NCBI GenBank assembly: GCA_963778795.1
Contig: CAVZVU010000001.1
Span: 1,777,574-1,841,573 of the forward strand
Direction: 5' to 3'
Length of the DNA stretch: 64,000 bases
From: an uncultured Pseudomonadota bacterium
GTDB taxonomy: Bacteria > Myxococcota_A > Polyangia > Fen-1088
Shown one piece after another: positions 8,721 through 40,569 of the stretch; within the stretch, counting starts at the first letter, position 1; every line of letters starts with the position of its first letter. The translations under genes were made by a program, and so were the position numbers. The notes under the pieces were generated by a model. That model saw only the letters and a list, made by a program, of their open reading frames with translations, was not told the DNA's origin and ran no database searches.

Positions 8721-8744
8721 GTCAGCAAACCCGCGCAAGACCCG

Positions 8745-11276: not shown

Positions 11277-11335
11277 GATCAGCCGGGGAATGGACGCCGC
11301 CGGGCCGGGCCCGCCCGCGTCCACCCGATCGCGAC

Positions 11336-12317
11336 TCACTCCTTGAGCCATCTCTTGAAGTCGGGGTTCAGCAGCGCCTGCGCGAGCGGCGAGCTCATCG
11401 TGTCGCGCGTGATCAGCGTGGCGCCGGTGTCGATGCGCTTGTCGACCGGCTTGCCCGCGAGGCGATCGACCATCGTCTTGACCGCCAGGTAGCCCATCTT
11501 GATCGGATCCTGCACCACGGTGGCGTTCATGTTTCCCTTGGCCATGGCGTCCACCAGCTTGGGCGAGCTGTCGAAGCCGACGAAGTTGACCTTGCCGGCG
11601 AAGCCGTCGTCCTCCAGCGCGCGCAGCATGCCGAAGGCGGTCGACTCGTTGGGGCAGAAGATGCCCTGCACGGTCAGCCCGTTCGGCCCCTTGTGCGAGG
11701 TCAGGAGGTTCTCGCTCACCTTGAAGGCGCTCTCGGTGGTCACGCCGCCGTACTGGTTGGAGCTGACGACCTCGATCCCCTTGTGCGCGGCGATGGCGTC
11801 GAGGAAGCCCCGCTCGCGCTCAGCCGTGCTGGCCGAGCCCTCGGCGTAGCGGAGCATCATCACCTTGCCCTTGCCGCCCAGCAGCTGGCGCGAGGTGCTC
11901 GCCCGCCAGCTTGCCGCCCCGGTAGTTGTCGGTGGCGACGAAGCTGACGATCTCGTCGGTCTTGATGCTCGAGTCGAAGGCGATCACCGGGATGCCGGCG
12001 CGGACCGCGTCGGTCACCACCGGCACCAGCGCGGTGTCGTCCAGCGGCGCCAGCACGATCCCCTTGACCCGCATGTTGATGAAGTTCTCGACCACCTTGA
12101 TCTGGTCCTCGCGATCGTCCTCGCGCAGCGGGCCCTTCCAGATGATGTTCACGCCTAGCTCCTGGCCGGCCTTCTCCGCGCCGGCGTGCACCGACTTCCA
12201 GAACTCGTGGGTCGTCCCCTTGGGGATGACGGCGATGGCGTCAGTCGTTCGCTTCTTGCAGGCCGCTGCGTTGCAGAGGCCGAGCACCAGCATCACCCAC
12301 GCGAGGCCTCGTTTCAT
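11336..12317 (-). CDS. periplasmic sugar-binding lipoprotein (RbsB-like, CUT2 ABC substrate-binding protein); frameshift ~11865
   Basis: [20 protein letters not shown] (lipobox), then [36 protein letters not shown]...[16 protein letters not shown]...IPVIAFDS...[16 protein letters not shown]. The C-terminal half lies in frame 11336..11863 (...[26 protein letters not shown]). Confidence 0.8.
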
Positions 12318-12389
12318 CGGGCGGATAATAGGATGGCTCGGGTTCCCATGTTCAAACAAAGCGTGCAAGCGTGATAGACAGGACCGGCG

Positions 12390-13560
12390 GTGAACGGCCC
12401 TGCCTCCAGCTTCGGCGCTGACCTCGACTTTCTGCAGCGCCACACCGAGACGATCGTGCTGTCGGATTCCTCTGGCGCGGCGCGCCTGGTGCTGTGCCCG
12501 GCGCTGCAGGGGCGCGTGGCCACCAGCACGGTGTCCGGCGCCGCCGGGCCGAGCTTCGGCTGGCTGAACCGCGAGCTGATCGCGTCGGGGAAGCTGGCCC
12601 CGCACATGAACGCCTACGGGGGCGAGGACCGCTTCTGGCTGGGCCCCGAGGGCGGACAGTTCGCGCTCTTCTTCGCTCCCGGGGCGCCCCAGGATCTCGC
12701 GCACTGGTACACGCCGGCGCCGATCGACGCCGAGCCGTTCACGCTGGTCGAAAAGGCGCAGGACCGGGCGCTGCTGCGGCAAGACGATGCGGGTGACCAA
12801 CGCGGCGGGGACCGTGTTCGATCTCGAGGTCGAGCGCGAGGTGCGCCTCTACGACGCCGAGCGCACCTGGAAGGAAGCCGGCGCGGTGGCGAAGAGCCGG
12901 TGCAAGGTCGTCGGCTTCGAGTCGCGCAACCGCATCATCAACCGGGGCGCCGTGCCCTGGCGGCACGACACCGGGCTCGTCTCCATCTGGATCGCCGGCA
13001 CGTTCTCGCCGTCGCCGTCGACGATCATCGTGCTGCCGATCCGCGCCGGGCGCGAGGCCGAGCTTGGCCCCGCGGTCAACGACCAGTACTTCGGCCCGGT
13101 GCCGTCCGATCGATTGCGGGTCAAGGGCAACGCGATCTACTTCCGCGGCGACGGCCAGCAGCGCGGCAAGATCGGCGTCTCGCCCCGACGCGCGCGGCCG
13201 GTCCTCGGAAGCTACGATGCCGACCGCCAGGTGCTCACCCTGGTGACGTATTCGCTGCCCACTCTCGATCACGGGGCGCCCGAGTACGTGAACGCGCTGT
13301 GGGAGCATCAGCGCGAGCCCTACCGGGGCGACGTCCTCAACAGCTACAACGACGGCCCGCCCGCGCCGGGGCAAAAGCCCCTGGGCCCCTTCTACGAGCT
13401 GGAGTCGTCGTCGCCGGCCGCCGCGCTGGCGCCGGGCGAATCGGCCGAGCACGTGCACCGCACGATGCACTTCGTGGGCGCGCCCGCGGAGCTCGACGAG
13501 GTGGCGCGCGCGGCGCTCGGTGTCGGGCTGGCCGACATCACCTCGGCTTTTTCGCGGTGA
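12390..13560 (+). CDS. conserved hypothetical protein (family not recognised), frameshift ~12790
   Basis: Coherent codon usage across two frames: YGGEDRFWLGPEGGQFALFFAPGAPQDLAHWYTPAPIDAEPFTL then VFDLEVEREVRLYDAE...GLVSIWIAGTFSPSPSTIIVLPI...KGNAIYFRGDGQQRGKIG...QVLTLVTYSLP. Transcribed divergently from the binding-protein gene. Confidence 0.5.
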
Positions 13561-13741
13561 GCCGGCGCCGGGCCCGCTGCGCGAAGAACAGCATGGTCAC
13601 GCCGAACAGCAGCAGCACCAGCCCCCAGCCGAAGTTGACGTTGATGCCCAGCGAGTGCTCCTGGTAGATGCCGGGATCGGAGACCAGCCCGAAGCCGGCG
13701 AGCAACACGCCGAAGATCGAGAACATCAGGCCGATCGGCAA
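13538..13741 (-). CDS. small two-TM membrane protein (DUF3311-like partner of SSS transporters)
   Basis: 67 aa with two hydrophobic helices (MFSIFGVLLAGFGLV; WGLVLLLFGVTMLFF) and a basic tail. It sits immediately downstream of the symporter. Confidence 0.5.
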   Translation of the reverse strand: MPIGLMFSIFGVLLAGFGLVSDPGIYQEHSLGINVNFGWGLVLLLFGVTMLFFAQRARRRLTAKKPR

Positions 13742-13792
13742 GCGAACGTCGAGAATCCATCGCAGGCGCCTCCTCCCTTTTTCGCGGTCACT

Positions 13793-15511
13793 TCACCAGA
13801 AGACGATGTTCAAGACCAGCGCCAGCGCCAGCATGATCGCCCCCAGCGTGGCGGGGCGCTTGTACCAGACGGTGTGCTCGTTCTCTTCTTTCGCCCGGGG
13901 CGTCAGCGAGTAGACCAGGCCGGCCAGCTCCTGGTCCGACTTGCGCTGCTTGGTGGCCAGCGAAACCGCCACGGTCCAGATGAAGCAGACCGAGAACGCC
14001 CAGATCGCGGTCCAGAAGTTCTGCGCCATCTCGCTGGGATAGTGGTGCGACACCGCGAGCCAGCCGCCCTTGAGCCCCACCTCCGCCCCCTTCGGCAGCG
14101 ACAGACCGTGGTGGCCCGCGGCGGCCGCCGTGCCCGCCAGCAGGCCGAGGAAGGCGCCGTGGCCGGTGGTGCGCCGCCAGAACATCCCGAGCAGGAAGGT
14201 CGCGAACAGCGGCGCGTTCACGAACGCGAACACCAGCTGCAAGACGTCCATGATGTTGTTGAACTGCGCCGCCGCGTACGCGCACAGCCACGCTGGCGCC
14301 GATGCCCGCGATCGTGGCGGCGCGCCCGACGGCCAGGTAGTGGGCGTCGCTGGCGTTCTTGCGGATGTAGCTCTGGTAGATGTCGTAGGTCCAGACGGTG
14401 TTGAAGGCGGTGACGTTGCCCGCCATCCCGGACATGAACGAAGCGATCAGCGCCGTCAGCCCCAGCCCGAGCAGCCCGGTGGGAAAGTAGTGGGCGAGCA
14501 TGGCCGGCACGACCATGTCGTAGTTGAGGCTGCCGCCCTTGCTGGGCAGCGAGAGGTGCGCGTCGCCGCTCGCGTGCAGCGCGATGGCCAGCATGCCCGG
14601 CAGGATGACCAGGAACGGGAAACAACATCTTCGGGAACGCGGCGATGATCGGCGTTCGCCGGGCCGAGTTCATGTTCTTGGCCGCCATGGCGCGCTGGAT
14701 GACGAGAAAGTCGGTGCACCAGTAGCCGAACGACAGCACGAAGCCGAGGCCCATCGACGAGCCCGAACCACTCGACGCCCATCGGGTTCGACTCCGCCGA
14801 ACCGGTGAACTTCCACGAGTGCGACCAGGCGCCCTCGGCCATTCCGTTGCGCGTGGCGACCACCGCGAGCCGGCTGGTGAGGCCGGACCAGCCGCCGACC
14901 TGCTTGAGGCCGAGCAGCACCAGCGGCAGGAAGCCGAACACGATGAGAAAGAACTGCAGCACTTCGTTGTAGATGGCCGAGCGCAGCCCGCCCATGAAGA
15001 TGTAGACCAGCACGATCACGCCCGAGGCGACGATGCACAGATGGAAGTTCCAGCCGAGGATCGCGTGCAGCAGGGTCGCGAGCGCGTACATCGAGATGCC
15101 CGACGACATGACGGTCATGCACGCGAACGTCACGGCGTTGAACCCGCGGGTCTTCTCGTCGAAGCGCAGCTTGAGGTACTCCGGCACCGAGCGCGCCTTC
15201 GAGCCGTAGTAGAACGGCATCATGAAGACGGCCACGAACACCATCGCCGGGATCGCGCCCACCCAGTAAAAGTGGCTGGTCATGATCCCGTACTTCGCGC
15301 CCGAGGCCGCCATCCCCATCACCTCCTGCGCGCCGAGGTTCGCGCCGATGAAGCCCAGGGCACAGATCCAGGTCGGCAGCGCGCGCCCCGATTCGAAGAA
15401 GTCCTTCGTCCCGCTGACGCCCTTGCGCACCACGAAGCCGATGCCGAGGACGAACGCGAAGTAGACGACCAGCAAGCAGTAGTCGATGACGCCGAGGTGG
15501 ATGATCATCAG
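13793..15511 (-). CDS. sodium:solute symporter (SSS family, SGLT-like); multiple frameshifts
   Basis: MIIHLGVIDYCLLVVYFAFVLGIGFVV...DFFESGRALPTWICALGFIGANLGAQEVMGMAASGAKYGI...GLRSAIYNEVLQFFLIVFG... The sequence continues in the ORFs 14218..14754 and 13793..14251 (...LLGMFWRRTTGHGAFLGLLAG...). Confidence 0.8.
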
Positions 15512-15645: not shown

Positions 15646-16185
15646 ATGTCGTTTCGTTTTGCTTACTCACGCGCGTCGATGGTTGGTTGTTCGGTGATGC
15701 TTTGTGGCCTCGCCTGGCTCGGGTGCGCGACCACTCAGTCCGGCGCCACGCCTGAGGAGCTCGTGCGGGCGCGCGGCCAGGCCGACCAGGGCGCCACCAT
15801 CTACATGAACGAGTGCGCCAAGTGTCACGGCCAGCGGGGCGAGGGATTGGCGAGCTCTCCCGCGATCTTGGGCCCGGGCGCGCTGCCGGAGTTTCCGCGC
15901 ACCACGGGGAGCGCCACCGATCCGACGGTCCTCGACCCCCAGATGATCCAGATCCAGGCGCAGACGCGGCCCGCCGGCGCGGCATCCCGCGATCCGATTC
16001 GAAACGCCGCGGATCTGTTCAGTTACACGATGAGGCATATGCCCAAGAGCCACGCGGATGAGCTTCTCAAGGAAGGCGACTACTGGGCCGTCGTGGGCTT
16101 CCTGCTCGCAGCGCAGGGCGCGAGCCTGCCGCCGGGCGGCATCGGCCCTGCAAATGCAGTCTCGATCCCGATTCCGCGGCGTTAG
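15646..16185 (+). CDS. c-type cytochrome lipoprotein (single CxxCH)
   Basis: Lipoprotein signal (VMLCGLAWLGC) and heme-binding motif CAKCHG; 179 aa. Confidence 0.5.
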   Translation: MSFRFAYSRASMVGCSVMLCGLAWLGCATTQSGATPEELVRARGQADQGATIYMNECAKCHGQRGEGLASSPAILGPGALPEFPRTTGSATDPTVLDPQMIQIQAQTRPAGAASRDPIRNAADLFSYTMRHMPKSHADELLKEGDYWAVVGFLLAAQGASLPPGGIGPANAVSIPIPRR

Positions 16186-16345
16186 TCGGCCGCTGATCGA
16201 GGCGCGCGGATTTCATGAACCGTTCCGGACGCCGCACGCTACTGAGGAAACACTTGCCCCTTCACGCCCTGACATTTGAACGTTCGCGCACCGGCATTCG
16301 ATTCGGGCGGCAGGCCCGAGGAACGCGCCTCGTGGTCGAGCTTCG

Positions 16346-17924
16346 ATGATTCGTTTGAAAGATCGACGCTTGTTCTCCCGTCGCTTGTCCAGCTGCTTGT
16401 TCGTGTTGCCGCTCGCGCTGCTGATGCTGGCGGCTGGCGCGGCGCGTGCGGACCAGGCTGCGCCCGCCGCAGGCGCTGCGCCTCCCGCGCCAACCGATTC
16501 CTTGCCGGGATCGTCGGGCCCGCCCGGTCTGAGTTTGTCGCCGGAAGCGCCGCCCGTGCCGCCCGCGGCCGGCGGGAGGGCGCCTTCGTTTGGCGCGCCC
16601 AACCTCGAGAAGCCCTCGTCGTTTCGGATCGGCGGCCGGTTCTACGGGTGGGAAGCGGTCGGGGTTGGCAGCCGACCAAGCAATCCACCCGCGGGCTATT
16701 CCGGAAGTCCGCTGCACACGCCGCTGCTCTCGACGGGAAAGATCCCGTTCTGGGGCGGCGCGGGCGCGACGCTGAATCTGCAGTACGGCACCCGGTACGT
16801 GACCGCCTTCGCCAGCTACTACTTTCGCGTGAACCGCGCCGGAGTACAACGGCTACGTGAATCCGCAGCTCGGGCCGTCGTTCGGCCTCGCCTACCTGCT
16901 GTTCACGCCGCATCCCATCGGAACGCTGCGTTTGACATTCCGAGTCGGCTCGTTCGTCGAGGTGTACGCGGGACCTGGCCAGTGGGGCTGGGGCATCTTC
17001 GGGCCGCTGCTCGGCGCTGCGCGGCTACCGGCGAGACGACCAACGGCGAGTGGGACGTGACGCGCGACGTGCGCCTGACCTTCACGCACGGGCTGCTCGT
17101 CGTTCCGGGCGTGCCCGAGGACTTCGCCCGCGGCGACTACAACAGCTGGATCGAGACCGGCGTATCGAGCTACGTGCACCACGCCCACCTCGGGCTGGTT
17201 CTCAAGAATCAGTACATCTTCAGGCTGCACTACGCGGCGTCCTACGGAACCGACGAGCGTACGTACCTGAAGACGTTCCTGAACACCGCGCCGGCAGACG
17301 GCCAGTGGAACACCTATCTCGCCGAGGCGCGCTGGCAGGCCGACCCGTGGGGCCAGCTCGGGTTCACCGGCGGACGTCTACGATTTCAAACACGCCGCAT
17401 CGGTCGGCGACGGTACCTGGTGGGCCGTCGACTGGACGCAAGGCGCCCGCGAGATGATCAACAAGTTCCTCGGACCGGGCAGCAACGGAAACGGTAAAGT
17501 CGCCGTGATCGGAGCGGAGTACAATTTCAGCCTCTCGCGCATTCTCTGGTCGCCGCGCAGCTTCAACGGCGACGCGCCGGACCTGCGGGTCGCCATCGCC
17601 GCGATGCTCACGCGCACCGTGGCGACCGATGATCCGAACTACAAGAACATCAACGGATACTACGTCGGCGGCGAGACCGAGTACCGGATGACGTCGCTGT
17701 TCAGCCTGACTTTCCAGGCCTACGGCGAAAGCCGTTACAGCTACCTCGGAAACTGGAGCGTCTACAGCGTCAATCCCGGGATCGCATTCCACACCGACTG
17801 GTTCAGCACCGATCGCATTCAACTGATCTACGGCCGGCGCTTTTACAGCCGCGCCGCGGACCCCAACTCAGCCCAGCCGCTGGATCGCAACATGATTGCG
17901 CTCGGCGGTTACATCACCTTTTGA
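16346..17924 (+). CDS. outer-membrane beta-barrel protein (porin-like), paralog 1; frameshifted (~16850, ~17050, ~17450)
   Basis: Signal peptide (LFVLPLALLMLAAGAARA), Pro/Gly-rich linker, alternating amphipathic beta-strand pattern, and a C-terminal aromatic end (...IALGGYITF). Shares LGPGSNGNG...GAEYNFSLSR motifs with paralog 2. Confidence 0.65.
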
Positions 17925-17941
17925 ACCGAGAGCGTTTGACG

Positions 17942-19447
17942 ATGCAAAAAGTCCTTTCGATAACTCGAATCGTCGTCGCTTTGCTCGCCACGCCCGCGCT
18001 GGCCATGGCCGCGCAAGGTGACGACCTGGGGCCCCCGCGGCTTGGCCTCTCGCCCGGCGAGCCGCAAGTCCGCAGCGCGACTCCCGCGATCCCCTTCGGC
18101 GTTCAGCCGATCAACTCGAAGGAGTACGTGCTGGATTTCCACGGCTACTTTCTGCTGCCGGCCCGCCTCGGCCTGCACCAGCGCGAGAACCCGATGGTCG
18201 GACAGTCCAGCACGGTCCTTCACTCGCCGCCGCTCATTCCTCAGGACCTGCGGGACTTCGAGTACACCGGCGTCGTGCCCGGTCCCTGGCTGCAGCTCAA
18301 TTTCATCTACGGCAACTCGACGGTGTCTGCCACCGCGATCCTGGCCGGCACCTCCGCCTCGGATGCGGCCGGCTTCTACAACCCGGTGGAGCAGTTCGGC
18401 GTGAACGACGCGTTCCTCACCTTGAACCTGACCAAGAGGGTCGGCTTCCCGCTGCAGCTGAACGTCGGCGCCTTCACCGGCCGCTACGGCGCGATGGGAA
18501 CGTACGATGCCGGGCGCTACGGCACGCCGCTGATTGCGCGCACAAACACCATCGGGGAGACCATCACGGCGGCCTACAAGGTCGGCGAGGTGCTGTTGAT
18601 TCTGGAGCAGGGGCTGGGTGGCCAGATGGCGCGGCCCCCGGCCGGTCTGGTTTCGGCGGGCTGGAATGACTTTGCGAACGCCAACGTTGGTTCGACCTTC
18701 GTCAACCACGCCCATCTCGGCATCGCTTACAGTCCGGTCGGTCGGCTCGGCCTGCATTATTTGACGGCCTGGACGCAGGACGACCTCACCAATGGTGGTC
18801 GAATCCCGGATGGCCGGATCACCGTGCTGGGCGCCGACCTCAACCTCGCCCTCGGGCGCGCCGGTCACTGGTACGTCGGCACGGCCCGGACGACGGCCAC
18901 GAACGCGGCGCCGATCTCGGGCGCGATCGAGATCCTGAATGCGCGCGGCGGGCCCGAGCTCATGGAGCATTACCTCGGCCCGAACAGCAACGGCACCGGC
19001 ACGCTCACCACGGTCGGCGCGCAGTACGATCTCAGCCTCGCGAGGCTGGTGTTCGGCGACTGGTACACGGGCGTCAGTCCGGAAATCCTGATCAGCTTGT
19101 TCGGCGTCGCAACGGCCGTCACCAGCCGTGATCCTGACTACGACGGTGTCTTCAAGGTGAAGGGGGGCGCCGAGGTCACCTATCTGTTTGCGTCATGGAT
19201 GGGAGTCTCCGAGCGGGTCGATCACGTTCGCCAGGACGGCAGCGACTCGGCGAAAGCCTTCTCGAGTTATTCGTCGCGCCTGCTGTTCCACACCGGCTGG
19301 AAGAGCCGCGACGAGATCGCGCTGCAGTACTCCCACTTCGTGTACGGCAGTGCCGTGTACGTCAAGTCGGGGTATCCTCCGGTCCTGAATCCGGCCTTGA
19401 ATCCGGACCGAGACGTCTTCTCGTTGACCGGCACCTTCTGGTGGTAG
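17942..19447 (+). CDS. outer-membrane beta-barrel protein (porin-like), paralog 2 (intact)
   Basis: Signal peptide (VVALLATPALAMAAQG), ~500 aa with alternating hydrophobic pattern, C-terminal ...SLTGTFWW. Shares LGPNSNGTGTLTTVGAQYDLSLARL with paralog 1. Confidence 0.65.
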   Translation: MQKVLSITRIVVALLATPALAMAAQGDDLGPPRLGLSPGEPQVRSATPAIPFGVQPINSKEYVLDFHGYFLLPARLGLHQRENPMVGQSSTVLHSPPLIPQDLRDFEYTGVVPGPWLQLNFIYGNSTVSATAILAGTSASDAAGFYNPVEQFGVNDAFLTLNLTKRVGFPLQLNVGAFTGRYGAMGTYDAGRYGTPLIARTNTIGETITAAYKVGEVLLILEQGLGGQMARPPAGLVSAGWNDFANANVGSTFVNHAHLGIAYSPVGRLGLHYLTAWTQDDLTNGGRIPDGRITVLGADLNLALGRAGHWYVGTARTTATNAAPISGAIEILNARGGPELMEHYLGPNSNGTGTLTTVGAQYDLSLARLVFGDWYTGVSPEILISLFGVATAVTSRDPDYDGVFKVKGGAEVTYLFASWMGVSERVDHVRQDGSDSAKAFSSYSSRLLFHTGWKSRDEIALQYSHFVYGSAVYVKSGYPPVLNPALNPDRDVFSLTGTFWW

Positions 19448-19454
19448 GAGCCGT

Positions 19455-20372
19455 ATGGACATCAAGCGCGCATCGAGAACCGAGTTGCCGCCCGTCTCCG
19501 GGCTGTTGCTGTGGATTGCCGCGGGTTGCGCAGTCGGTTGCACCGCCTACCCGACGTTGAAGAACCTGCCGCTCGATTGCAGCGTCGAGGACAAGTACGA
19601 GTTTCAGTCCGTCGACATCTTCGAAACGGTCGGCCCGGGCAGCGGTGTCGGCATCTGGATGTCCGGTGACACGGCGACCCCGATTCAGAGCTCGGACGTG
19701 GAACCGCTGACCGACGGTGCTCGGTGCGGCAGCACGGCCGCCCTGGTGTTGCGGTCGGTCCACAACAACGATTGGGGCTCCCTGTTCGGCGACTACACTT
19801 TCGGTGGCCCCACCGGTCGGGATGAATCGATGTACGAGGGGATGTCGTTCTGGGCGCGCGCTCCCGGCAACACGACCAAGAGCTTCTCGATCCTGCTCGG
19901 CGACCCGAACACGACCTGCTTGAATACGGCCGACACGGTGACCGGAGCGTGCCCCCTCCCGGTTGGCGCCTACTGCAGGACTTACGCGACCGCCGACGGG
20001 GGGACCTCGCTTCCGATGGGGACGTATACCGATTCCAGCGGCAATATCATCTCGGGCACGACCACCTCGGCGCCGCCGGCCGATGCCTGTGGAAACGCCT
20101 ACAGCACCGTGGTCGTGGTGACGACCGACTGGCAGCTCTACCTCATTCCGTTCGGCAAGTTCCAGCAGGCCAACACGCCGAATAAAGTGCCCAACGATGT
20201 TCTCACCAAGACTGGGCCGCTGCCCGAAACGGCGCTCTTGACGTCCACGCTGGTGAATCTCACGCTGCGGATTCCCAAGGAAGCGAATCTGGAGCTGTGG
20301 ATCGATAACCTGGGTTTCTATCGAAAGAAGGGGCTGGCGTCCGGCAACGATGGGGGCGTCGATGCGCGGTAG
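19455..20372 (+). CDS. surface lipoprotein with CBM-like beta-sandwich domain (paralog 1)
   Basis: Lipobox LLWIAAGC. The C-terminal half ...WQLYLIPFGKFQQ...LVNLTLRIP...LELWIDNLGFY resembles carbohydrate-binding-module architecture (inference). No frameshift. Confidence 0.5.
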   Translation: MDIKRASRTELPPVSGLLLWIAAGCAVGCTAYPTLKNLPLDCSVEDKYEFQSVDIFETVGPGSGVGIWMSGDTATPIQSSDVEPLTDGARCGSTAALVLRSVHNNDWGSLFGDYTFGGPTGRDESMYEGMSFWARAPGNTTKSFSILLGDPNTTCLNTADTVTGACPLPVGAYCRTYATADGGTSLPMGTYTDSSGNIISGTTTSAPPADACGNAYSTVVVVTTDWQLYLIPFGKFQQANTPNKVPNDVLTKTGPLPETALLTSTLVNLTLRIPKEANLELWIDNLGFYRKKGLASGNDGGVDAR

Positions 20373-20474
20373 ATTGTCGCGGGATGGCCAACGGGCTGTG
20401 CTCGGCGGCGCTCGACCGCGGGGGATCCTGAGGACCGTTTGCCGGTCCGTTATATGTGAAAAGGGAGCGAGAAC

Positions 20475-21403
20475 ATGAACATGAATCATCGAACTTCGAC
20501 GTACGTCATCATCTTTTGCACTCCTTTTCCTCGCGTGCGGGCTGGTGGCCTGCACGACCCAGGAGGCGCCCAGCCGGAGGCACCGGCGGCAAGACGACGG
20601 GCGGCACCGGAGGCAAAATTGCCGGCACCACCGGTACGGGCGGCGGGGCCGGCTCGTACGCCACGAATGATGGCGTGCTCTGTCCGCTTCCGATGCAGGC
20701 TCTCATCACCGACTTCACCGTCGTTCCCCCGGACGCCGGCGCTCCCTCGGATGGCGGCGCCGCGGACGGCGGCGCTGCGGATGCCGCCCCGGTCGCGACG
20801 AATACCGTCCACTTCGGTGGTGGCGCGACGCTCGGCGGCAGCGAGTTCGTTTATCCCACCGGCGGAATGTGGCCGGTCACTTCGGACGTGTCCGGCGGCA
20901 GCTGGCACATGACCGGCACCCTCGGCGACTACTCGGGCTTCGGGCTCTACTTCGACAATTGCAGCCGCGTCGATGCTTCGGCCTACTCCGGGATCTCGTT
21001 CACCATCTCCGGTCGCCACCGGCTGCCACCGGGGGGGATCGTCACCATGGACATCGCGACCTTGGACGATCAGATCGCCGCGTCCTGGCTCTTGGCCCAC
21101 GGCGGCGGCACCCCCGCCGCTACCGACCCCGGCCGTTGCATTCCCGACGCCACGGCCACCAGCCAGTACAACCAGACCGATTGCGCCGATCCCACCAAGG
21201 TCATCACCGTCACCACGACGCCGACCAAGGTGACGATCCTGTGGACCGATTTCACTGGCGGAAAGCCGACAGCGGCGGTCACGCCGGGCGACATCATCGG
21301 CATCTATTGGTTCTTCCCGCCCCCGGTGGGAGCCGGCACCACGACCCCGACGACGTATCCGGTCGATATCACGATCGACGACCTCAGCTTCATCGCGCCG
21401 TGA
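20475..21403 (+). CDS. surface lipoprotein with CBM-like domain (paralog 2); two frameshifts in first 150 bp
   Basis: MNMNHRTS then a cryptic frame ALLFLACGLVACTTQEAP (lipobox), then Gly/Thr linker TGGKTTGGTGGK. The C-terminal domain ends ...ITVTTTPTKVTILWTDFTG...DIIGIYWFFPP...YPVDITIDDLSFIAP. Confidence 0.55.
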
Positions 21404-21436
21404 CGGACCGATCGGACCGGCCGGTTCACGCGGAGA

Positions 21437-22190
21437 ATGGATCCAATGACGCCCAACTCGCGTAGGTTTGACGCGCTCATCGCCTGTGCATCGCTCGCCG
21501 TCCTCGCTCTGGGGACGGCGGGTTGCCTCTGCCCCCCTTGCCCCGGGACCGCCGGAGCCGCGCCGGCCACGGCAGCGACGGGGATGACCGCCATGGGGGC
21601 GGCGAACCCTCCCATGGGCGCAGCCAGTGCCACGCCGGTCGCCGAGGGCGGCCGGCTGGTCGTCTGGGACGGAGATGGGGCGGGGCCGGGCGCGCAGGGA
21701 TGGGAGTCGTGTGACAAGGCGCCCAACTGCGTGGCGAAGGTCGGGCCGGATTCAGGCAGCGGCACCAATGGCAGCACCGGCCTCAAGCTGCACGGGCGAG
21801 GGGCCGGGGTTCATCGGCATGGGCTGGAACCTGTTCGGATGGTACCCGGAGACCGCGGGCGTCGACCTCACGCCCTACACCCATCTGACGTTCCAGATCC
21901 GCGTCGAGGCCAAGTCTCCCGAAGACGCGCCGGACCCTGGCTCCGTGGGGGTGTTGCTCGGGTGCAGCAAGAGCAAGAAGGACAGCGCCACGGCACTCGG
22001 TCGAGCGGTACGCGAAGGGATTCGAGGACGGCAAGTGGCACAAGGTCTCGATCCCGATCTCGACCTTCATCAAGGGGTCCGGCGCCCAGTTCGATCTGCA
22101 GTCGTTCTGGGAGTTCAGGATCGCCACCTGGAGCGCGGCGCCGCGCAACTTCGACCTCTACGTCGACGACATCGCCGCCGAAAAGCAGTG
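21437..22190 (+). CDS. surface lipoprotein with CBM-like domain (paralog 3); frameshifted
   Basis: Lipobox ALGTAGC. ...GFIGMGWNLFGWYPETAGVDLTPYTHLTFQIRVEAKSPED..., then in another frame ERYAKGFEDGKWHKVSIPISTFIKGSGAQFDLQSFWEFRIATWSAAPRNFDLYVDDIAAEKQ. Confidence 0.55.
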
Positions 22191-24595
22191 ACCGCGGTCG
22201 TTCACGTCAGTCGCACCGGGGCGGCGCTCGGCTTGGCGGGCGGGGGCCGTCGCGGGCCGGTCCGGTTCGCGGCTGATTTGGTCGCGGCTGGCGCGGTTGC
22301 GGCCGTCGCGGTCGCCTGCCTCAGCAGCTCCGCGGCCTGCGTCGATACCGGGCCGCGCATCAAGCCGGGGGGACCGACGGCACTGACTTGCCAGGTGGCG
22401 GCGCCCGTACCTTACGCGGGCCCGGCGGCGATCCCCTCCGCCGACACGGCGGCGGGAGGACCGTACATGTGGAAGAACGCCGTCATCAAGGGGGGCGGCT
22501 TCGTCACCGGCATCATCATGAGCTCGGCGCTTCCTGATCTCATCGTTCGCGCGCACCGACGTCGGCGGCGCCTACCGTTTCGATCCGGCCAACCGGCGCT
22601 GGAGAGCGATCACCGATTGGGCCGGCCACACCGACGGCAGCTTCGCCGGGATCGAGAGCATCGCCGCGGATCCGATCGATCCCAACAAGGTCTACCTGGC
22701 CGCCGGGCAGTACCTCACCGCCGGTAACGGGTCGATCCTGAGCTCGACCGACATGGGGCAGACCTGGACCAGGAGCAGCATCGGCGCGGCCATGGGCGGA
22801 AACGCGGACGGCCGATCGATGGGCGAGCGGCTCGCCGTCGATCCCAATCTGCCCAGCACCTTGTACTTTGGCTCGCGCAACGCGGGCTTGTGGAAGAGCA
22901 CCGACTCTGCGCAGACCTGGACTCGTGTCGGCTTCCCGACGCCCGGCGTGACCAATGACAGTGGGGGGTCGGGCTACGGATTGACGATCGTGGTCTTCGA
23001 TCCGACGAGTGGCTCGCCAGGCAGCCCTACACCGACGATCTACGTCGGTGTCGGCGTGAACCCCGGGAACGCGCTTTACCGCTCGCTCGACGCGGGCGCG
23101 ACCTGGGAGCCGGTCGCCGGATCGCCCCCGGGATGATGCCGCATCACGCGGTGCTCGATGGGTGCGGCAACCTCTACCTCGCGTACAACAACAATTCAGG
23201 CCCAGCAACGTCACCTTCGGCGCGGTTTGGCGATACAACACGGTGAGCGACGCCTGGACAGACGTGAGCCCGGGCCCTGAGGCGAAGTACCGGTCCGGGG
23301 GCTTCGGCGGAATTGCGGCCGACGCCGCCCATCCGGGGACGCTTGTCGTCACGACGCTCGACAACTGGAGTCCCGGCGGGATCTATCGGACCACCAACGG
23401 CGGAGCGAGCTGGGTGGCGGTGGTTCCACCGATGCAGCGGGATGTGGCGGGCGCGTCCTGGCTCTATTGGCACACCAGCAACCTGCCGGCGATGGGGTGG
23501 ATGGGCGACGTCGAGATCGATCCCTTCAATCCGTCGCGCGCTCTTTACGTCACGGGGCAAGGCATCTGGTCGAGCGATGACATCACCGCCGCCGACAGCA
23601 GCGCTCCGACGCACTGGACCTTCGACGACGACGGGCTCGAAGAGACCGTGGCGCTCGACATCGCCAGCCCGCCGTCGCCGACGGGTGCCACCGTGCTGAG
23701 CGGCGTCGGCGACATCGCCGGGTTCCGGCACGACGACCTCGACGTCTCTCCTCCCGGCGGCATGTTCGCCAACGCCGGTCTTCGGCAATACGCAGAGCCT
23801 CGATTTCGCCGAAGGCGCGCCGGACATCGTCGCGCGGGTGGGCACGAGCTCCTCGGGCGGGCGGACCGGCGCTTACTCGACCGACGGGGGCACGACCTGG
23901 ACCCCATTTGCCACCAGCCCGGCGGCAACCGGGACGATGGCAACGGCCCAGGGATCGATCGCGGTCTCGGCCGACGGCGCGACGTTCGTGTGGGCGCCAC
24001 CCGGGGGCACGACCCTGGGCGCCGGCGTGCCCTCCTACTCGCGGGATCGCGGCGCCACCTGGACCGCCAGCGTCGGGCTCACCGCGGGCGCGCGGGTTGC
24101 CGCCGACCGCGTCAACCCCGCCAAGTTCTACGCGGGCCGGGGCGCGCGGATGTACGTCAGCACCGACGGCGGGGCGACGTTCATGCAGGCCACGACGTCC
24201 CCGTCGGGCGGGCGGCCGCGTCCGGTGTTTGGAGTCGAGGGGGATGTTTGGGTCACGACGAACAACAGCCTGCTTCGCTCGCAGGACTCGGGCGCGACCT
24301 ACGCGGCCGTGCCGCAGGTGAACGGCGCGACCGCGGTCGGTTTCGGGATGCCCGCCCCGGGGCAGAGCTACCCGGCCGTGTACCTCGCGGGCTCCATCGG
24401 AGGGCGTCTGGGGCACGTACCGCTCCGATGACGTTGGCGATCACCCCGACGGCGTCGGCGTGACCTGGCAGCGAATCGATGACCCGCAGCACCAGTTCGG
24501 AATCATCAACTGCCTGACCGGCGACCCGCGCCGGTACGGCCGCGTTTATCTCGGCACAGATGGGAGAGGAATCGTCTATGGCGACCCGCAACCGC
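22188..24595 (+). CDS. GH74 xyloglucanase-like BNR/Asp-box glycoside hydrolase (copy 1); many frameshifts
   Basis: Lipoprotein-like start (VAAVAVAC), then YMWKNAVIKGGGFVTGII...ARTDVGGAYRFD...GIESIAADPIDPNKVYLAAGQY...STDMGQTWT (Asp-box)...YRTTNGGASW...STDGGTTWT...SRDRGATW...STDGGATF...GIVYGDP. The repeated S/T-x-D-G-G-x-T-W motifs define a tandem 7-bladed beta-propeller typical of GH74. Confidence 0.8.
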
Positions 24596-24638
24596 AACAG
24601 ATAAGAACGCGCGTACTCCCAAGAGTACGGCGACGACG

Positions 24639-26955
24639 GTGAAGATCTGGGCGATGTCGCTGGCGGGGATCGGCGCAGTCTTGCTGCAACCCGGCTGCAA
24701 ATCGGTGTGCACGTGCACCGTGCCACCCGAGACGCCCGGCACGGCCGTGGCGACGGCCGCCACGGCTCAGCCCGCCGCGGCCACGCCAACCCCGGCGGCG
24801 GCAGCCGGCGGCGGCGGCCTGGCCGGCAGCGTGAAATACAACTGGAAGAACGTCGTCATTCTCGGCGGCGGCTTCGTCAGCGGCGTCGTCTTCAGCCCGA
24901 TCGAGAAGGATCTCGTCTACGCCCGCACCGACGTTGGCGGCGCGTACCGGTGGAATCCGGCGGACAAGACCTGGATCCCGATCACCGACCACCTCGGACG
25001 CGACTCGAACTTTCTCGGCATCGAGAGCCTGGCGACCGATCCGGTCGACCCCAACAAGGTCTACCTGGCCGCGGGCACGTACACGGGATCGTGGGTTGGC
25101 AACGGCGCCATCCTGCGTTCGAACGATCGGGGCAACACCTGGCAGGTGACCGACATGCCGGTCAAGATGGGCGGCAACGAGAACGGCCGCTCGATGGGCG
25201 AGCGCCTGGTCATCGACCCCAATCTGCCGAGCATTCTCTACTTCGGCTCGCGCAAGGGCGGGCTATTGAAGAGCGCCGACGCGGGCGCGAGCTGGGAAAA
25301 GGTCGGCGGCTTCTCGGCCACCGACAACGACAAGGGGATCGGCATTCCGGTCGTCGTTTTCGACAAGGCGAGCGGCGCCAAGGGCAAGCCGACGCCGATC
25401 ATCTACGCCGCCGTCGCCAACAACCAGGGCTCGCCTCTACCGCAGCACCGATGGCGGCGCGACCTGGAAGCTGATGCCGGGCCAACCCACCGGCGTGATG
25501 GTCAGCCACGCGGCCTTCGACAGCACCGGCGCGCTGTACCTCAGCTACCAGAATGGCCCGGGCCCGAACGACGTGAGCGACGGAGCGGTCTGGACGTACC
25601 AACCAAAGCAGGAGAAGTTCATCGACATCACGCCGGCCGCCCCCAAGGGCGAGGACAAGTTCGGCTACGGCGGGCTGTCGCTGGACGCCGCGCACCCCGG
25701 GACCCTGATGGTCAGCACCATCGACCGATGGAGCCACGGCGACGAGGTTTATCGAACGACCGACGGCGGCAAGACCTGGAAGGCGCTGCTGCCGAAGGCC
25801 GTCCGCGACGACGCCGGCGCGAAGTACCTCTACTGGCACAAGAGCGAGCCGATCGGACGGGGCTGGATGGGCGACATCGACATCGACCCCTTCAATCCGG
25901 GGCGGGCGATGTACGTGACCGGCGCCGGGCTCTGGGCGACCGACGACGCGAACGCCGCCGATACGTCGGACAAGCCGACCCACTGGACGTTCTTGAACCG
26001 CGGGCTCGAGGAGACGGTCATCAAAGGCCTGGTCAGCCCACCTGCCGGACCGCCGTTGCTGAGCGCGATGGGCGATCTCTGCGGGTTCCGGCACGACGAT
26101 CTGAACGCGCCCTCCGCGGGCGGGATGTTCGACAACCCGCTGTGCGGCTCGGCGAGCGCAATCGATGTCGCCTGGGCCAAGCCGGACGCCGTCGCGCGGG
26201 TCGGCTGGGACGACAAGCAGCGATGGGGCGCCTCGTCGCTGGACGGGGGCAAGACCTGGACGCCGTTCAAGACCGTGCCCAAGGGCAAGGGCGCGGGCTC
26301 GATCGCGGTGTCGGCAGACGGTTCGGCCTTCGTGTGGGCCCCGCTGGAGGGGCCGGTGGTTTTCTCGAAGGACCAGGGCGCGACCTGGGCGCGCGCCGAG
26401 GGGCTTCCCAACGCGGAGGCCTCTCCGGATTGGGCGCCGGTTCCGTTCCGCCCGGCCGCCGACCGCGTGAACGCCAAGAAGTTCTACGTGCTCGACGCCC
26501 GGGGCGGGCAGGCGTACACCAGCGTCGACGGTGGGGCGCACTTCACCCCTTCGCCGACCGGGTTGCCCAACCTTCCCGAGTACCAGTTCAGCTCCGCGTC
26601 GGCGCAGGCCACGCCCGGCATCGAAGGCGACGTGTGGCTCACCAACTTCAGAGAGCTCAATCACTCGACCGATTCGGGCAAGAGCTATGAGTCCATCTCC
26701 GGCGTGAGCGAGGCGTACGCGCTCGGCTTTGGCAAGCCGGCCGCCGGCAAGACCTATCCGGCGCTGTATCTCATCGGCAAGATCGGCGACGTGACCGGCT
26801 TCTTCCGCTCCGATGACGCCGGCGCCAAGTGGGTCCGCATCAACGACGATCAGCACCAGTACGGCTTCTGCACCATCATCACCGGCGACCCGCGCGTGTA
26901 TGGCCGCGTCTACGTGGGAACCGGCGGCCGCGGGATCGTGTACGGCGAGCCGTAG
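24639..26955 (+). CDS. GH74 xyloglucanase-like glycoside hydrolase (copy 2); one frameshift ~25440
   Basis: MKIWAMSLAGIGAVLLQPGC then YNWKNVVILGGGFVSGVVFSP...RTDVGGAYRWNP...SNDRGNTWQ...SADAGASWE... (frame switch) ...RTTDGGKTW...SLDGGKTWT...SKDQGATW...SVDGGAHF...STDSGKSYE...SDDAGAKW...GIVYGEP. About 55% identical to copy 1. Confidence 0.85.
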
Positions 26956-26968
26956 CGCCAGGTTCGAA

Positions 26969-29279
26969 GTTGCAGCTCGTTCTCTCGGGAATCGCCCGGT
27001 GGCGCCGGGCGCTCCTGGGCGCGTTGGCTCTGGCCAGCACGGTCGGATTCGCGCTCGCGCGGGCCGGCAGCATCGCCGCGCAAACGCCGTCGCCGGTTCG
27101 GAATTTTCCGTACCTCGATCCGACCAAGCCTCTCGACGCGCGCGTCGAGGACCTGCTGGCCCGGCTCACGCTCGAGGAGAAGGTCGGCCTCGTCCACGCC
27201 AACGGCAAGTTCCGCGCGGGCGGCGTCGAGCGGCTCGGCGTGCCCTACCTGTGGACCGCCGACGGACCGCAGGGCGTGCGCGAGGAGCTGGGCGTCGACT
27301 CGTGGGAGCCGGCCGGCTGGACGAGCGACTTCGCGACCGCGATGCCGGTCGGCATCGCCCTCGCGTCGACCTGGAACACCGAGCTGGCGCGAGGCCTACG
27401 GCCGCACGGTCGGGCGACGAGGCCCGCGCGCGCGGCAAGCACGTGATCCTCGGCCCCGCGCTGAACATCCAGCGGACGCCGCTGTGCGGCCGCAACTACG
27501 ACTACTTCGGCGAGGACCCGTGGCTCGCCGGCCGCATCACGGTCGGCTACGTGAAGGGCATGCAGGCCGAGCAGACGATCGCCTGCCTCAAGCACTACGC
27601 CGCCAACAACCAGGAGCAGGACCGCGGCTCGATCGACGTGCAGGTGGACGAGCGGCCGCTGCGCGAGATCTACCTGCCGGCGTTCGAGGCGGGCGTGCGC
27701 GAGGGCGGGGCGCTCGCGGTGATGGGCGCCTACAACAAGGTCCGCGGCGAGCACGCCTGCCACAACGACTACCTGCTCAACCAGGTGCTCAAGCGCGAGT
27801 GGGGCTTCGCGGGCGGCGTCATCTCCGACTGGGGCGGCACCCACGACACGCGCGAGGCCGTGCTCAAGGGCCTCGACCTCGAGATGGGCACCGGCAAGCC
27901 CTACGAGCAGTACTTCCTCGCCGGCCCCTTCCTGGCCGGGCTGAAGGACGGCACGTTCCCGATCGTCGGTGCTCGACGACAAGGTGCGCCGCAACCTGCG
28001 CATGCTGATCGCGTCGGGCGCCCTCGACGGCCGCCGGCCCGGCACGATCAACACCAAGGCGCACCAGGACGTCGCGCGCCGCGTCGCGCAGGAGGGGATC
28101 GTCCTGCTCAAGAACGAGCCTCCGTCCGTGCTGCCGCTCGACCTCGCGAAGCTGAAGACGATCGCGGTGATCGGCGACAACGCCGTGCGCCGCTTCGCCG
28201 CGGGCGGCAACGCGGCCGGCGTGAAGGCCTTCCACGAGATCACGGCGCTCGACGGCATCCTGGCGCGCGTGGGCGGCCGGGCCGACGTCGTCTTCTCGCA
28301 GGGCTACCGGCAGCCGCGAGCCGCGCCGCGACGGCCCGCGCGACCTGGCCGGCGTGCGCACGAGCGAGCTGACCGCGGCGTCGCCCGAGGAGGCGAAGGA
28401 GCTGGCCGACCGCGCCGTCGAGACCGCGCGCCACGCCGACGCCGTGCTCTTCGTCGGCGGCCTCACCCACCAGGCGGGCGCCGACGACGAGGGCGTCGAC
28501 CGCCGCGACCTCTCGCTGCCCGCGCACCAGGACGAGCTCATCGCGCGCCTCGTCGAGGCGAACCCGCGCACCGCCGTGGTGCTGATCGCGGGCTCTCCGG
28601 TCGACATGACCGCGTGGCTCGCGAAGACGCCCGCCGTGCTGCAGGCCTGGTACGGCGGCTCGGAGGCCGGCCACGCGCTCGCCTCGGTCGTCTTCGGCGA
28701 CGTCAGCCCGTCGGGCAAGCTGCCCTGCACGTTCCCGAAGGCGCTCGCCGACTCGCCCGCCCACGCCGCCGGGCCTCGCCCGCCAGTTCCCCGGCGAGGG
28801 TGGCAAGGTCTGGTACGACGAGGGCCTGCTGGTCGGCTACCGCTGGAACGACGCGAAGGCGCGTCGAGCCGCTCTTCCCGTTCGGCCACGGTCTGAGCTA
28901 CACGCGCTTCCGTACGCGGAGCTGCAGTCGAAGCTGACCGCCGGTCGCCGACGGCCCGAGCGCCACGCTCTCGCTCCAGCTCACCAACACCGGCGAACGC
29001 GAGGGCGCCGAGGTCGTGCAGGCGTACGTGCGTCCGGTGAAGCCGCCGGTCGCGCGGCCCGAGAAGGAGCTGAAGGCCTTCGCGAAGGTCCTGCTCAAGC
29101 CGGGCGAGACGAAGACCGTCACCCTCGCCCTCGGTCCGCGCGCCTTCGCCTACTACGACCCCGACGCGAAGGCCTGGCGCGTCGCGAAGGGCCGCTACGA
29201 GCTGCTGGTCGGCGCCAGCTCGCGCGACATCCGTCTCACCGGCAGCGTCGAGGTGACGACCTCCACGCTGTTGAAGTAA
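26969..29279 (+). CDS. GH3 beta-glucosidase; several frameshifts
   Basis: Signal peptide (ARWRRALLGALALASTVGFALA). GH3 N-domain: LTLEEKVGLVHANGKF...GVPYLWTADGPQGV...HVILGPALNIQRTPLCGRNYDYFGEDPWLAG...ACLKHYAANNQE...AFEAG...GVISDWGGTHDT. alpha/beta domain: IAVIGDNA...VLFVGGLTHQAGADDEGVDRRDLSLPAHQDELI...GSPVDMTAW...AWYGGSEAG...LFPFGHGLSYT. C-terminal FnIII-like domain in ORF 29016..29279. Confidence 0.85.
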
Positions 29280-32400: not shown

Positions 32401-32442
32401 GCGGAAGCGGAGGACGAAGCGAGCGCGGAAAGAGTTGTTCAT
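29414..32442 (-). CDS. GH2 beta-galactosidase-family glycoside hydrolase; frameshift ~31700
   Basis: N-terminus MNNSFRARFVLRF...LLDFGWKFHLG...WRRVDLPHDWAVE...YDITDV (sugar-binding domain, ORF 31717..32616). Catalytic part in 29414..31693: NAYRTAHNPPTPELLDAADRIGLLVMDE...ASVAIWSLANEE...MSAYDDNQTDW...GGFVWTGFDYRGEPTPYQWPCINSHFGILDTCGFPKD, with further C-terminal beta-sandwich domains. Confidence 0.85.
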
Positions 32443-32589
32443 GCGGTAGCTCCGGCGTTGAGTCGCCGCACTATATCGAAATGAGCTGATTTGTCGTTTC
32501 GTCGCTGCTGCAGTGGGTGCCGAGGATCGCCTGCACGGCCGGGGAACAACGGGAAGAGCCGTCATCTCCACGAGCGATTCGACCAAGGT

Positions 32590-36136: not shown

Positions 36137-36161
36137 CCAGCGCGCGTCGAGCCCCCGGACG

Positions 36162-38697: not shown

Positions 38698-40569
<1,872 letters not shown>

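Follow-up and report, generated by a model that had tools for sequence, protein, structure and literature searches.

A putative TonB-independent porin and lipoprotein module encoded beside GH74 xyloglucanase genes in an uncultured soil myxobacterium

By what route could fragments of plant fibre cross the outer membrane of a bacterium in which the genes placed where Bacteroidota have SusC/SusD encode proteins of another kind? The question is raised by a 64-kb window (the whole stretch of DNA analysed, 64,000 nt) from an uncultured soil myxobacterium of the Polyangia (Myxococcota), in which two beta-barrel genes and then three lipoprotein genes (16346-22191, + strand) lie directly 5′ of two GH74 genes (Table 1). 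This placement suggests TonB-free capture and import of such fragments, and we regard it as somewhat probable that the region 15646-29279 (+ strand) forms, within a locus for xyloglucan/beta-glucan utilisation, the operon for the outer-membrane proteins and endo-enzymes; a GDSL esterase gene is also present in the window. The gap between barrel 2 and LipA is 7 nt, and in an intact orthologous locus (L001) the genes from barrel 1 through GH74b are spaced by gaps of 1-16 nt. Frameshifts, which are probably long-read assembly errors, are abundant across the window, and barrel 1, LipB and LipC are each broken by two to three of them (near 16843, 17025 and 17375 in barrel 1, two within the first ~100 nt of LipB, and near 21808 and 21997 in LipC). 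An earlier, sequence-only reading of this DNA had silently joined the pieces of these three genes.

Table 1. Coordinates of the genes of the locus within the window
Feature	Position	Strand	Description
GH31 (alpha-xylosidase-type) enzyme	2719..5500	+	frameshifted; tblastn to L001 GH31
Inner-membrane sugar importers	8722..15511	-	Pfam domains; locus context
ABC ATPase/permease	8722-10926	-	Pfam BPD_transp_2, ABC_tran
Periplasmic sugar-binding protein	~11339-11983	-	Peripla_BP_4
Sodium:solute symporter	13796-15511	-	Pfam SSF
Cytochrome c lipoprotein gene	15646..16185	+	179 aa, monohaem; first gene of operon; Pfam Cytochrom_C
Barrel 1	16346..17924	+	~520 aa, outer-membrane beta-barrel; three-frame translation
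Barrel 2	17942..19447	+	intact, 501 aa, outer-membrane beta-barrel; maltoporin/ScrY-like predicted fold
LipA	19455..20372	+	305-aa lipoprotein; predicted CBM11/CBM30-like beta-sandwich
LipB	20475..21403	+	lipoprotein; Gly/Thr-rich linker, C-terminal beta-rich domain
LipC	21437..22191	+	lipoprotein; galactose-binding-like / SGBP-B-XBD-like domain
GH74a xyloglucanase	22250..24642 (start approximate)	+	probable lipoprotein; several frame changes; tblastn to L001
GH74b xyloglucanase	24639..26955	+	lipoprotein (LQPGC-K); at least one frame change near 25430; tblastn to L001
GH3 beta-glucosidase	26990..29279 (start approximate)	+	downstream end of cluster; frameshifted; Pfam Glyco_hydro_3 and Glyco_hydro_3_C on two ORF fragments
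GH2 beta-galactosidase-type enzyme	29414..32616	-	Pfam Glyco_hydro_2_C, _2, _2_N, DUF4982

Judged by sequence, both downstream genes encode genuine GH74 xyloglucanases, a family whose characterised members consist of two seven-bladed propellers. When translated, GH74a aligned in five pieces with its L001 orthologue at 50-66% identity, and GH74b with its own at 66-79% (tblastn). These orthologues in turn match solved GH74 xyloglucanases at E 1e-169 to 1e-182 (5.9e-169 for GH74a and 2.4e-182 for GH74b), with 6p2m, 2cn2, 6mgj and 5fkq matched over their full length (E 1e-146 to 1e-182), so that the barrels and lipoproteins do lie directly upstream of a GH74 pair, as had been claimed. The GH31 gene likewise aligned in seven pieces (65-87% identity, tblastn) with an L001 protein carrying Pfam GH31 domains.

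The two barrels have cleavable signal peptides with an Ala-X-Ala site and end in aromatic residues (...GGYITF in barrel 1 and ...GTFWW in barrel 2). Comparison of intact orthologues gave 26% identity over ~480 residues (E 6e-23), bearing out the earlier description of two tandem paralogues of ~500 aa; barrel 1 itself is 56-80% identical to its L001 orthologue (tblastn). That they are not 22-strand TonB-dependent transporters had also been proposed, correctly as it appears. That is, a TonB-dependent transporter such as SusC has an N-terminal plug (PF07715) with a TonB box and a 22-strand barrel (PF00593), in a protein of ~700-1100 aa, whereas here neither a plug domain, nor a TonB box, nor a TonB-dependent-receptor Pfam match was found, and a moderate-confidence structure model of barrel 2 predicts 18 antiparallel strands and no plug; a SusC identity was therefore rejected. 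In geometry this model best matches LamB and ScrY, two oligosaccharide porins that share the predicted 18-strand plug-less architecture, but there is no detectable sequence similarity to them: neither barrel has a Pfam or NCBIfam match at E ≤1, the LamB profile (PF02264) included, and a profile of 32 barrel homologues found no PDB sequence at E ≤10. Barrels of 16 to 18 strands also export polysaccharides (the AlgE, Wzi or PgaA type), a role that is hardly credible here since LamB and ScrY match clearly better and annotation of the neighbours gave hydrolases and importers but no glycosyltransferase, Wzx/Wzy, OPX or PCP gene.

The loops of the barrel are nearly as conserved as its strands (0.77 versus 0.81), and the highest segment of all is loop L3 (residues 190-205; 0.94), the pattern expected of a specific channel rather than of a general porin. 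In the sugar porin family the pore is lined by an L3 constriction and an aromatic 'greasy slide', of which the conservation of L3 is here an indirect sign at most. Both barrels, moreover, have an N-terminal extension that is conserved yet predicted to be disordered. Barrels 1 and 2 probably form either a hetero-oligomer or two channels differing in specificity; their obligatory occurrence as tandem paralogues suggests the hetero-oligomer instead of a homotrimer such as that of sugar porins.

The three proteins that follow were said to be paralogous lipoproteins with Gly/Thr linkers and CBM-like C-terminal domains, a description that holds in part. All three are lipoproteins: in alignments of orthologues the lipobox cysteine is invariant in LipA (C29) and LipC (C24) and at least 90% conserved in LipB (C33), for which a three-frame reading recovered the signal peptide ...LFLACGLVAC at 20524-20553. 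Clear paralogy was not obtained, as hhalign gave 85% probability for LipA-LipB over just 65 C-terminal columns, 23% for LipA-LipC and 36% for LipB-LipC. Only LipB has the Gly/Thr-rich linker, while in LipC (motif GC-LCPPCP) the linker after CPPCP is composed of Ala/Pro/Gly/Met and LipA has essentially none. The CBM-like character is suggested by several observations, with all Pfam scores below the gathering thresholds. The model of LipA is an all-beta sandwich predicted to be closest to CBM11 and CBM30, and its invariant W107, W133, W226, Y229 and Y289 are candidates for the aromatics that in CBM11 line a cleft on the concave face, where beta-glucan chains bind; the CBM11 profile (PF03425) does not match LipA of the window but matches 4 of 42 homologues at E ≤0.1 (best 5.9e-5). 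In locus L005, a protein with GH29 and F5/8-type-C (CBM32-type) domains carries a LipB-like domain at its C terminus, and lipoprotein GH44 enzymes of L045 and L074 carry a LipC-like domain at their N terminus. Seven of 12 LipC members match SGBP_B_XBD (PF18329), the xyloglucan-binding domain of SGBP-B from the Bacteroides ovatus-type system, weakly (best E 1.3e-4, all under the 26.4-bit cut-off; E 0.09 for LipC of the window); three database homologues carry a precomputed match to it, and LipC members also match CBM30 and CBM_11. The domains differ from CBM11, CBM30 and the SGBP-B domain in being free-standing lipoproteins. A SusD-like identity, which implies an alpha-helical lipoprotein with TPRs, was rejected for all three, given that none matches the SusD families (PF07980/PF12771/PF14322) and that the LipA model is all-beta.

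The arrangement was then followed through 75 related loci; every one comes from a Polyangia MAG, and they were retrieved with two barrel-2 peptide motifs, which biases the sample toward close relatives. Next to barrel 2, barrel 1 was found in 67 of 68 loci and LipA in 67 of 69. Glycoside hydrolases are syntenic with the module in most of the genomes, with GH74 no more than 10 kb away in 26 of the 37 full-length loci and GH44, GH9, GH5, GH3 or GH2 taking its place in more distant ones. The same order in dozens of related genomes means that the arrangement is not due to chance, and the likeness of the order barrel, glycan-binding lipoproteins, endo-enzyme to Sus-like systems, pointed out before, is upheld. 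Nevertheless, four to five loci have the barrel 1-barrel 2-LipA core but no CAZyme in the vicinity, so that the core is not strictly a xyloglucan device nor exclusive to glycan loci. In L047, for example, Pfam found no CAZyme among the neighbours tested, namely a phosphatidylserine decarboxylase, a methyltransferase, FtsX-type permeases and an M28-like protein, and this gene layout recurs in L048, L054 and L051.

Such loci would fit a barrel pair that, with LipA, is the general housekeeping porin complex of the lineage and merely tends to adjoin beta-glucan genes, as would the high rank of general 16- and 18-strand porins by Foldseek E-value. The high conservation of barrel 2 (65-91% identity over the best 120 matches), which exceeds that of the flanking lipoproteins (~70% versus ~42% for LipA), fits a housekeeping porin equally well and speaks against the uptake model. 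We nonetheless consider this explanation unlikely, if a genuine contender, because in most loci the barrel genes are closely packed and co-directional with those of CBM-like lipoproteins and GH74 in one operon, sugar-specific porins match the model best in geometry, and the surface loops are conserved instead of hypervariable. Furthermore, several MAGs hold two diverged copies of the module whose GH partners differ (GH74 versus GH44/GH5/GH9), which is unusual for a housekeeping porin and is a feature shared with PULs.

On balance, we lean toward a module that is a TonB-independent, glycoporin-based analogue of the Sus system. GH74 lipoproteins would cleave xyloglucan to oligosaccharides at the cell envelope, where LipA, LipB and LipC, if exposed at the surface, would keep polymer or oligosaccharide near the membrane. 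The two LamB/ScrY-like barrels would form the channel through which oligosaccharides diffuse inward to the periplasm without TonB energy, there to be debranched by GH31, GH2, GH3 and the fucosidase/esterase enzymes of the locus, and monosaccharides would be taken up by the adjoining ABC and sodium:solute transporters. Xyloglucan oligosaccharides are branched and of ~1.1-1.4 kDa, large for a LamB-type pore, and this size counts against the model.

The constant presence of LipA beside the barrels could also indicate that the barrels serve to expose or anchor LipA, LipB, LipC and the GH74 enzymes at the surface, in the manner of Slam-type translocators or of the passage of RcsF through OmpA/C/F. 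All neighbours from the cytochrome through GH74b are predicted lipoproteins, and the N-terminal extension of the barrels resembles a partner-binding peptide. This role seems quite improbable, however, in view of a fold nearest LamB and ScrY and not the 14-strand DUF560 Slam barrel, the absence of a periplasmic TPR domain and the lack of any sequence match to known translocators.

The Bacteroides ovatus xyloglucan locus has SusC/SusD, SGBP-B, surface GH5/GH9 and periplasmic GH31/GH2/GH3 enzymes; an endo-xyloglucanase lipoprotein, glycan-binding lipoproteins, an outer-membrane transporter and GH31/GH2/GH3 are common to both, whereas the locus described here lies in the Myxococcota, has no alpha-helical SusD and employs GH74 (GH44 in sister loci) instead of GH5_4. 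Sugar-specific porins such as LamB, ScrY and ChiP are a long-known route for oligosaccharide import, which means that the module is not the entirely independent solution that had been envisaged. ChiP (Vibrio/E. coli) and CymA (Klebsiella) are oligosaccharide-specific porins in catabolic operons, but these systems pair a single porin with a soluble periplasmic binding protein, and no CBM-type lipoprotein genes adjoin the porin. Unlike LamB and ScrY, the barrels are two diverged paralogues always in tandem, with a CBM-like lipoprotein always next, and their substrate would be branched beta-glucan oligosaccharides. The new element is the operonic pairing of sugar porins with CBM-type lipoproteins and lipoprotein glycoside hydrolases.

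More tentatively, the components might assemble into a TonB-independent 'utilisome', that is, a hetero-oligomer of the two LamB-like barrels capped by LipA and surrounded by the other CBM lipoproteins and the lipoprotein endo-glucanases, with the haem lipoprotein as a subunit, in which the barrel-LipA cassette is reused with GH74, GH44 or GH9/GH5. If so, it would be a previously undescribed functional counterpart of SusC/SusD that evolved independently outside the Bacteroidota.

The cytochrome c lipoprotein gene, missed by the sequence-only reading, belongs to the barrel-lipoprotein operon. It lies 5′ of barrel 1 in 43 of the 62 loci with sufficient flank, and such a frequent haem-binding partner is unexplained by the glycoporin uptake model and counts against it. 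The lipobox cysteine (C27) and the CxxCH motif (C57, C60, H61) are invariant in 18 orthologues. The invariant CxxCH and the place of the gene at the head of the operon could point to an outer-membrane redox unit defined by the cytochrome, whether of the porin-cytochrome type or supplying electrons for oxidative polysaccharide cleavage. This is very unlikely, however, as there is a single haem, the gene is missing from ~30% of the loci, an LPMO or multihaem partner was not seen among the annotated neighbours, and a barrel of 18 strands lacks the width to enclose a cytochrome in the manner of MtrB. The gene product scores 30.5 bits against Pfam Cytochrom_C (PF00034; cut-off 21.3). No single residue is conserved as the sixth ligand, and the PDB profile matches of the protein span the regions that bind haem in class I cytochromes.

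The module lies in a co-directional run of genes on the plus strand (15646-29279) of a window with a G+C content of ~68%, and the state of its genes is summarised in the table. Frame changes occur every ~300-800 nt across positions 2719-29279, in nearly all genes and at similar density, within otherwise well-conserved coding sequence; the GH31 gene is thereby split into seven pieces. The stitched reading frames are 50-87% identical to intact orthologues, no in-frame stops were found within the stitched segments of the window genes, and the nearest relatives come from soil MAGs assembled from long reads. Taken together, the even break density, the identity to intact orthologues and the long-read origin of the relatives suggest that the breaks are indel errors of long-read MAG assembly and not gene decay, and a pseudogene reading was rejected as the main one on the grounds of that even density and of the conserved, stop-free coding sequence. 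A 71%-identical related locus, L001, served as the intact reference. There, the intergenic gaps from barrel 1 to GH74b measure 1-16 nt, with the exception of LipA-LipB (47 nt). The corresponding gap of the window is 100 nt long and contains a stem-loop that could act as a transcription attenuator beyond the conserved core, i.e. barrel 1, barrel 2 and LipA, in a scan whose terminator-like sites (14 observed versus 9.0 ± 3.3 in shuffled controls) were as a whole not clearly above expectation. No promoter-like sites were found in the same promoter/terminator scan.

Features of the module and its surroundings (window coordinates unless a related locus is named)
Feature	Position	Strand	Observation
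CBM32-like (F5/8 type C) domain fragment	930-1532	-	
Cytochrome lipoprotein (179 aa)	15646-16185	+	first gene of operon
Barrel 1	16346-17924	+	frame changes near 16843, 17025, 17375; 4 pieces
Barrel 1 N-terminal extension	~16500-16600		
Barrel 2	17942-19447	+	intact
Barrel 2 N-terminal extension	~18050-18155		residues 37-71
LipA	19455-20372	+	intact
Stem-loop in LipA-LipB gap	20432-20448	+	weak, GC-rich, with T-rich tail
LipB	20475-21403	+	two frame changes within first 100 nt
LipC	21437-22191	+	frame changes near 21808, 21997
LipC L-C-P-P-C-P motif	~21500-21540		
GH74a	about 22250-24642	+	at least 4 frame changes; 5 pieces
GH74a lipobox region	22281-22340		+2 Val
GH74b	about 24639-26955	+	
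GH74b lipobox region	24639-24700		LQPGC-K, +2 Lys
GH3 gene	end at 29279	+	last of the run
Ser/Thr protein kinase	32831-36292	-	
Ser/Thr protein kinase	38677-40566	+	
GH74 lipobox regions of L001	14019 and 16382		
GH44 lipoprotein gene of L045	5276-7648	-	
GH44 lipoprotein gene of L074	5229-7724	-	

Both barrels carry cleavable signal peptides of the Ala-X-Ala type and end in aromatic residues (GGYITF in barrel 1, GTFWW in barrel 2). The intact orthologues share 26% identity over ~480 residues (E 6e-23), and by this measure barrel 1 and barrel 2 are true paralogues. A database protein (P0001) matches barrel 2 at 100% identity. With E ≤1 as the limit, neither barrel hit a model of Pfam or NCBIfam, and a profile of 32 barrel homologues found no PDB sequence at E ≤10. 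For barrel 2, AlphaFold2 modelling on that same 32-homologue alignment gave a structure of moderate confidence (pLDDT 71, pTM 0.74) with 18 long strands in which turns of 2-3 residues alternate with long loops; the best Foldseek TM-scores were obtained with the sugar porins ScrY (0.55/0.66) and LamB (0.49/0.58). On the strength of the model, the TM-scores and the failed profile matches, the barrels are predicted to be plug-less, 18-stranded, LamB/ScrY-like channels that make up a family without a described relative. The sequence-only reading, which had held them not to be TonB-dependent transporters, is thus borne out by the plug-less model and by the lack of sequence membership in the SusC family. 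Conservation over the 32 homologues is only slightly lower in loops than in strands (0.77 versus 0.81), and loop L3 (residues 190-205, GAMGTYDAGRYGTPLI) reaches the top value of barrel 2 (0.94). Both barrels also possess a Pro/Gly-rich N-terminal extension (LGLSPGEPQVRS...PFGVQP); that of barrel 2, 35 residues long, is predicted to be disordered while having a conservation of 0.80, and by analogy with the N-terminal extension of ScrY it may represent a periplasmic docking peptide.

LipA, LipB and LipC each have a signal peptide with a lipobox at its end. In the orthologue alignments the lipobox Cys does not vary in LipA and LipC, and at least 90% of the LipB sequences have it. In LipB there is a 45-residue Gly/Thr linker, and LipC starts with GC-LCPPCP followed by an Ala/Pro-rich linker. 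The SGBP-B xyloglucan-binding domain was matched by 7 of 12 LipC sequences (best E 1.3e-4) and CBM30 and CBM_11 by others, all below gathering scores; Pfam, NCBIfam and PDB profile searches with LipA and LipB, as with the barrels, returned nothing significant. Domain fusions seen in related genomes independently favour a CBM role: in loci L045 and L074, lipoprotein GH44 enzymes carry a LipC-like domain as their N-terminal module, and in locus L005 a fucosidase with GH29 and F5/8 type C domains has a LipB-like domain as its C-terminal module. A device for displaying lipoproteins is a distinctly unlikely reading of the module. The three lipoproteins had been regarded as paralogous, a claim we rejected as unproven because hhalign gave only a partial match between LipA and LipB (85% probability over only 65 columns; LipA-LipC 23%, LipB-LipC 36%). 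As a separate observation, the L-C-P-P-C-P motif conserved among LipC orthologues directly follows the lipidated Cys and is identical to the core hinge of IgG1, an analogy that suggests a disulfide-linked LipC dimer beside the membrane anchor.

Barrel 2 has more than 755 homologues in the database, all of them without a name except for a single source label, 'hypothetical protein [Polyangia bacterium]'; a set clustered at 50% identity yielded 625 representatives out of 1.84 billion. Scanning species-representative genomes with two barrel-2 peptide motifs retrieved 75 related loci, a procedure that under-samples the diversity; all are from MAGs labelled Polyangia, Polyangiaceae, Myxococcales or similar. 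Neighbours were counted by tblastn with the intact L001 proteins, and gene calls in the loci were crude (GC3 thresholds above 62% GC, plain longest-ORF calling in low-GC loci). Barrel 1 lies directly upstream of barrel 2 in 67 of 68 loci, and LipA directly downstream in 67 of 69. Among the 37 loci with full flanks, a LipC-like domain is found nearby in 32 and GH74 within 10 kb in 26; in more distant loci GH74 is replaced by a GH44-LipC fusion, GH9, GH5, GH3 pairs, or GH2 with a LacI regulator. That the barrels simply belong to a housekeeping porin complex is unlikely, if less so than lipoprotein display. Several MAGs carry two diverged cassettes with different GH sets (e.g. L023/L064, L034/L074, L046/L068 and L042/L051). 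The GH44 enzymes with the N-terminal LipC-like module (~800 aa; L045, L074, also L046 and L064) are encoded divergently from cytochrome-barrel-LipA cassettes and constitute a second, GH44-based locus type.

The first gene of the operon encodes a monohaem cytochrome c lipoprotein. Its score with Pfam Cytochrom_C exceeds the cut-off, and its haem region matches class I cytochromes. Its CxxCH motif is invariant, and the presumed sixth ligand is a His or Met in a T-H-M/L-P-K motif, the two never being missing together. The gene is present upstream in 43 of 62 loci; a redox module centred on this cytochrome is very improbable.

Orthologues of GH74a and GH74b match solved GH74 structures (E 1e-169 to 1e-182), which confirms that the pair noted downstream of the barrels are both genuine xyloglucanases. 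Around the operon lie genes for GH31, a GDSL esterase, an ABC sugar importer with its binding protein, a sodium:solute symporter, GH3 and GH2, along with a CBM32-like fragment; the enzyme set is that of a xyloglucan utilisation locus, and the ORFs examined included no TonB-dependent receptor. The best-supported reading, which we consider somewhat probable, is TonB-independent capture and import of xyloglucan. That is, the GH74 lipoproteins would nick xyloglucan at the envelope, the CBM-like lipoproteins would hold the polymer and its fragments, oligosaccharides would diffuse to the periplasm through the two glycoporin paralogues without TonB, and breakdown and uptake would be completed by exo-enzymes and inner-membrane importers encoded at the locus. 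Predicted folds, signals, gene order and conservation are observed here; the direction of transport, the substrate, surface exposure and complex formation are inferences. Transport in the opposite direction, by a polysaccharide exporter, is the least credible alternative.

Selfish glycan capture coupled to the cell surface counts as a hallmark of the Bacteroidota, where it relies on TonB-powered SusC/SusD pairs; for other Gram-negative degraders, either TonB-dependent receptors or stand-alone porins are assumed. The order of barrel, lipoprotein and endo-enzyme does mirror Sus-like systems, the locus logic matching that of the Bacteroides ovatus xyloglucan PUL, but by sequence the module does not belong to the SusC/SusD families. 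Likewise, its mode of action would be that of a specific porin of the LamB, ScrY or ChiP type located in a catabolic operon, although the barrels are not members of the LamB family by sequence. In the literature, which was incompletely covered and included one recent review, we found neither an account of a module of this kind nor any counterpart of its combination of tandem glycoporin paralogues, an obligatory CBM11-like lipoprotein, further CBM lipoproteins, lipoprotein endo-glucanases and a frequent haem lipoprotein. If TonB-independent capture and import is correct, the module would be a third architecture linking polymer capture to import, in abundant, uncultured Myxococcota from soil and peat, and the toolkit for plant cell-wall turnover would gain four families without a Pfam or PDB relative (the two barrels, LipA and LipB). 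The cassette would also be a genomic marker for PUL-like loci in Myxococcota, where to our knowledge none have been defined.

Some cassettes lie away from CAZymes. The core of locus L047 neighbours genes for a phosphatidylserine decarboxylase, a methyltransferase, FtsX-type permeases and an M28-like protein (~1500-aa M28/FtsX), with no CAZyme Pfam match among the neighbours tested. By comparison of ORFs L048 and L054 have a layout like that of L047, the locus covered by the Pfam scan, and L051, partly Pfam-tested, has an FtsX-type permease, a sugar kinase and a xylose-isomerase-like gene. The core is diverged in all four (regions of about 4-21 kb), and, with no CAZyme nearby, it appears from these gene neighbourhoods to have been recruited to another function in the FtsX-type loci. 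Two L047 proteins encoded downstream of LipA were tested as LipB/LipC relatives, and no relationship was found.

The residue at position +2 after the lipobox Cys is Lys in GH74b, also in L001, whereas it is Val in GH74a. In Myxococcus xanthus a +2 Lys keeps lipoproteins in the inner membrane, and by analogy the two enzymes may be active in different compartments. The CBM32-like fragment at the left probably represents the C-terminal portion of a GH29 fucosidase similar to that of L005, in which case the xyloglucan locus would reach further left. Just right of GH2, two Ser/Thr protein kinases, one of them with an AAA/STAND-like domain, flank an MFS transporter; the kinases may regulate the locus, a role filled in Bacteroidota by a hybrid two-component sensor.
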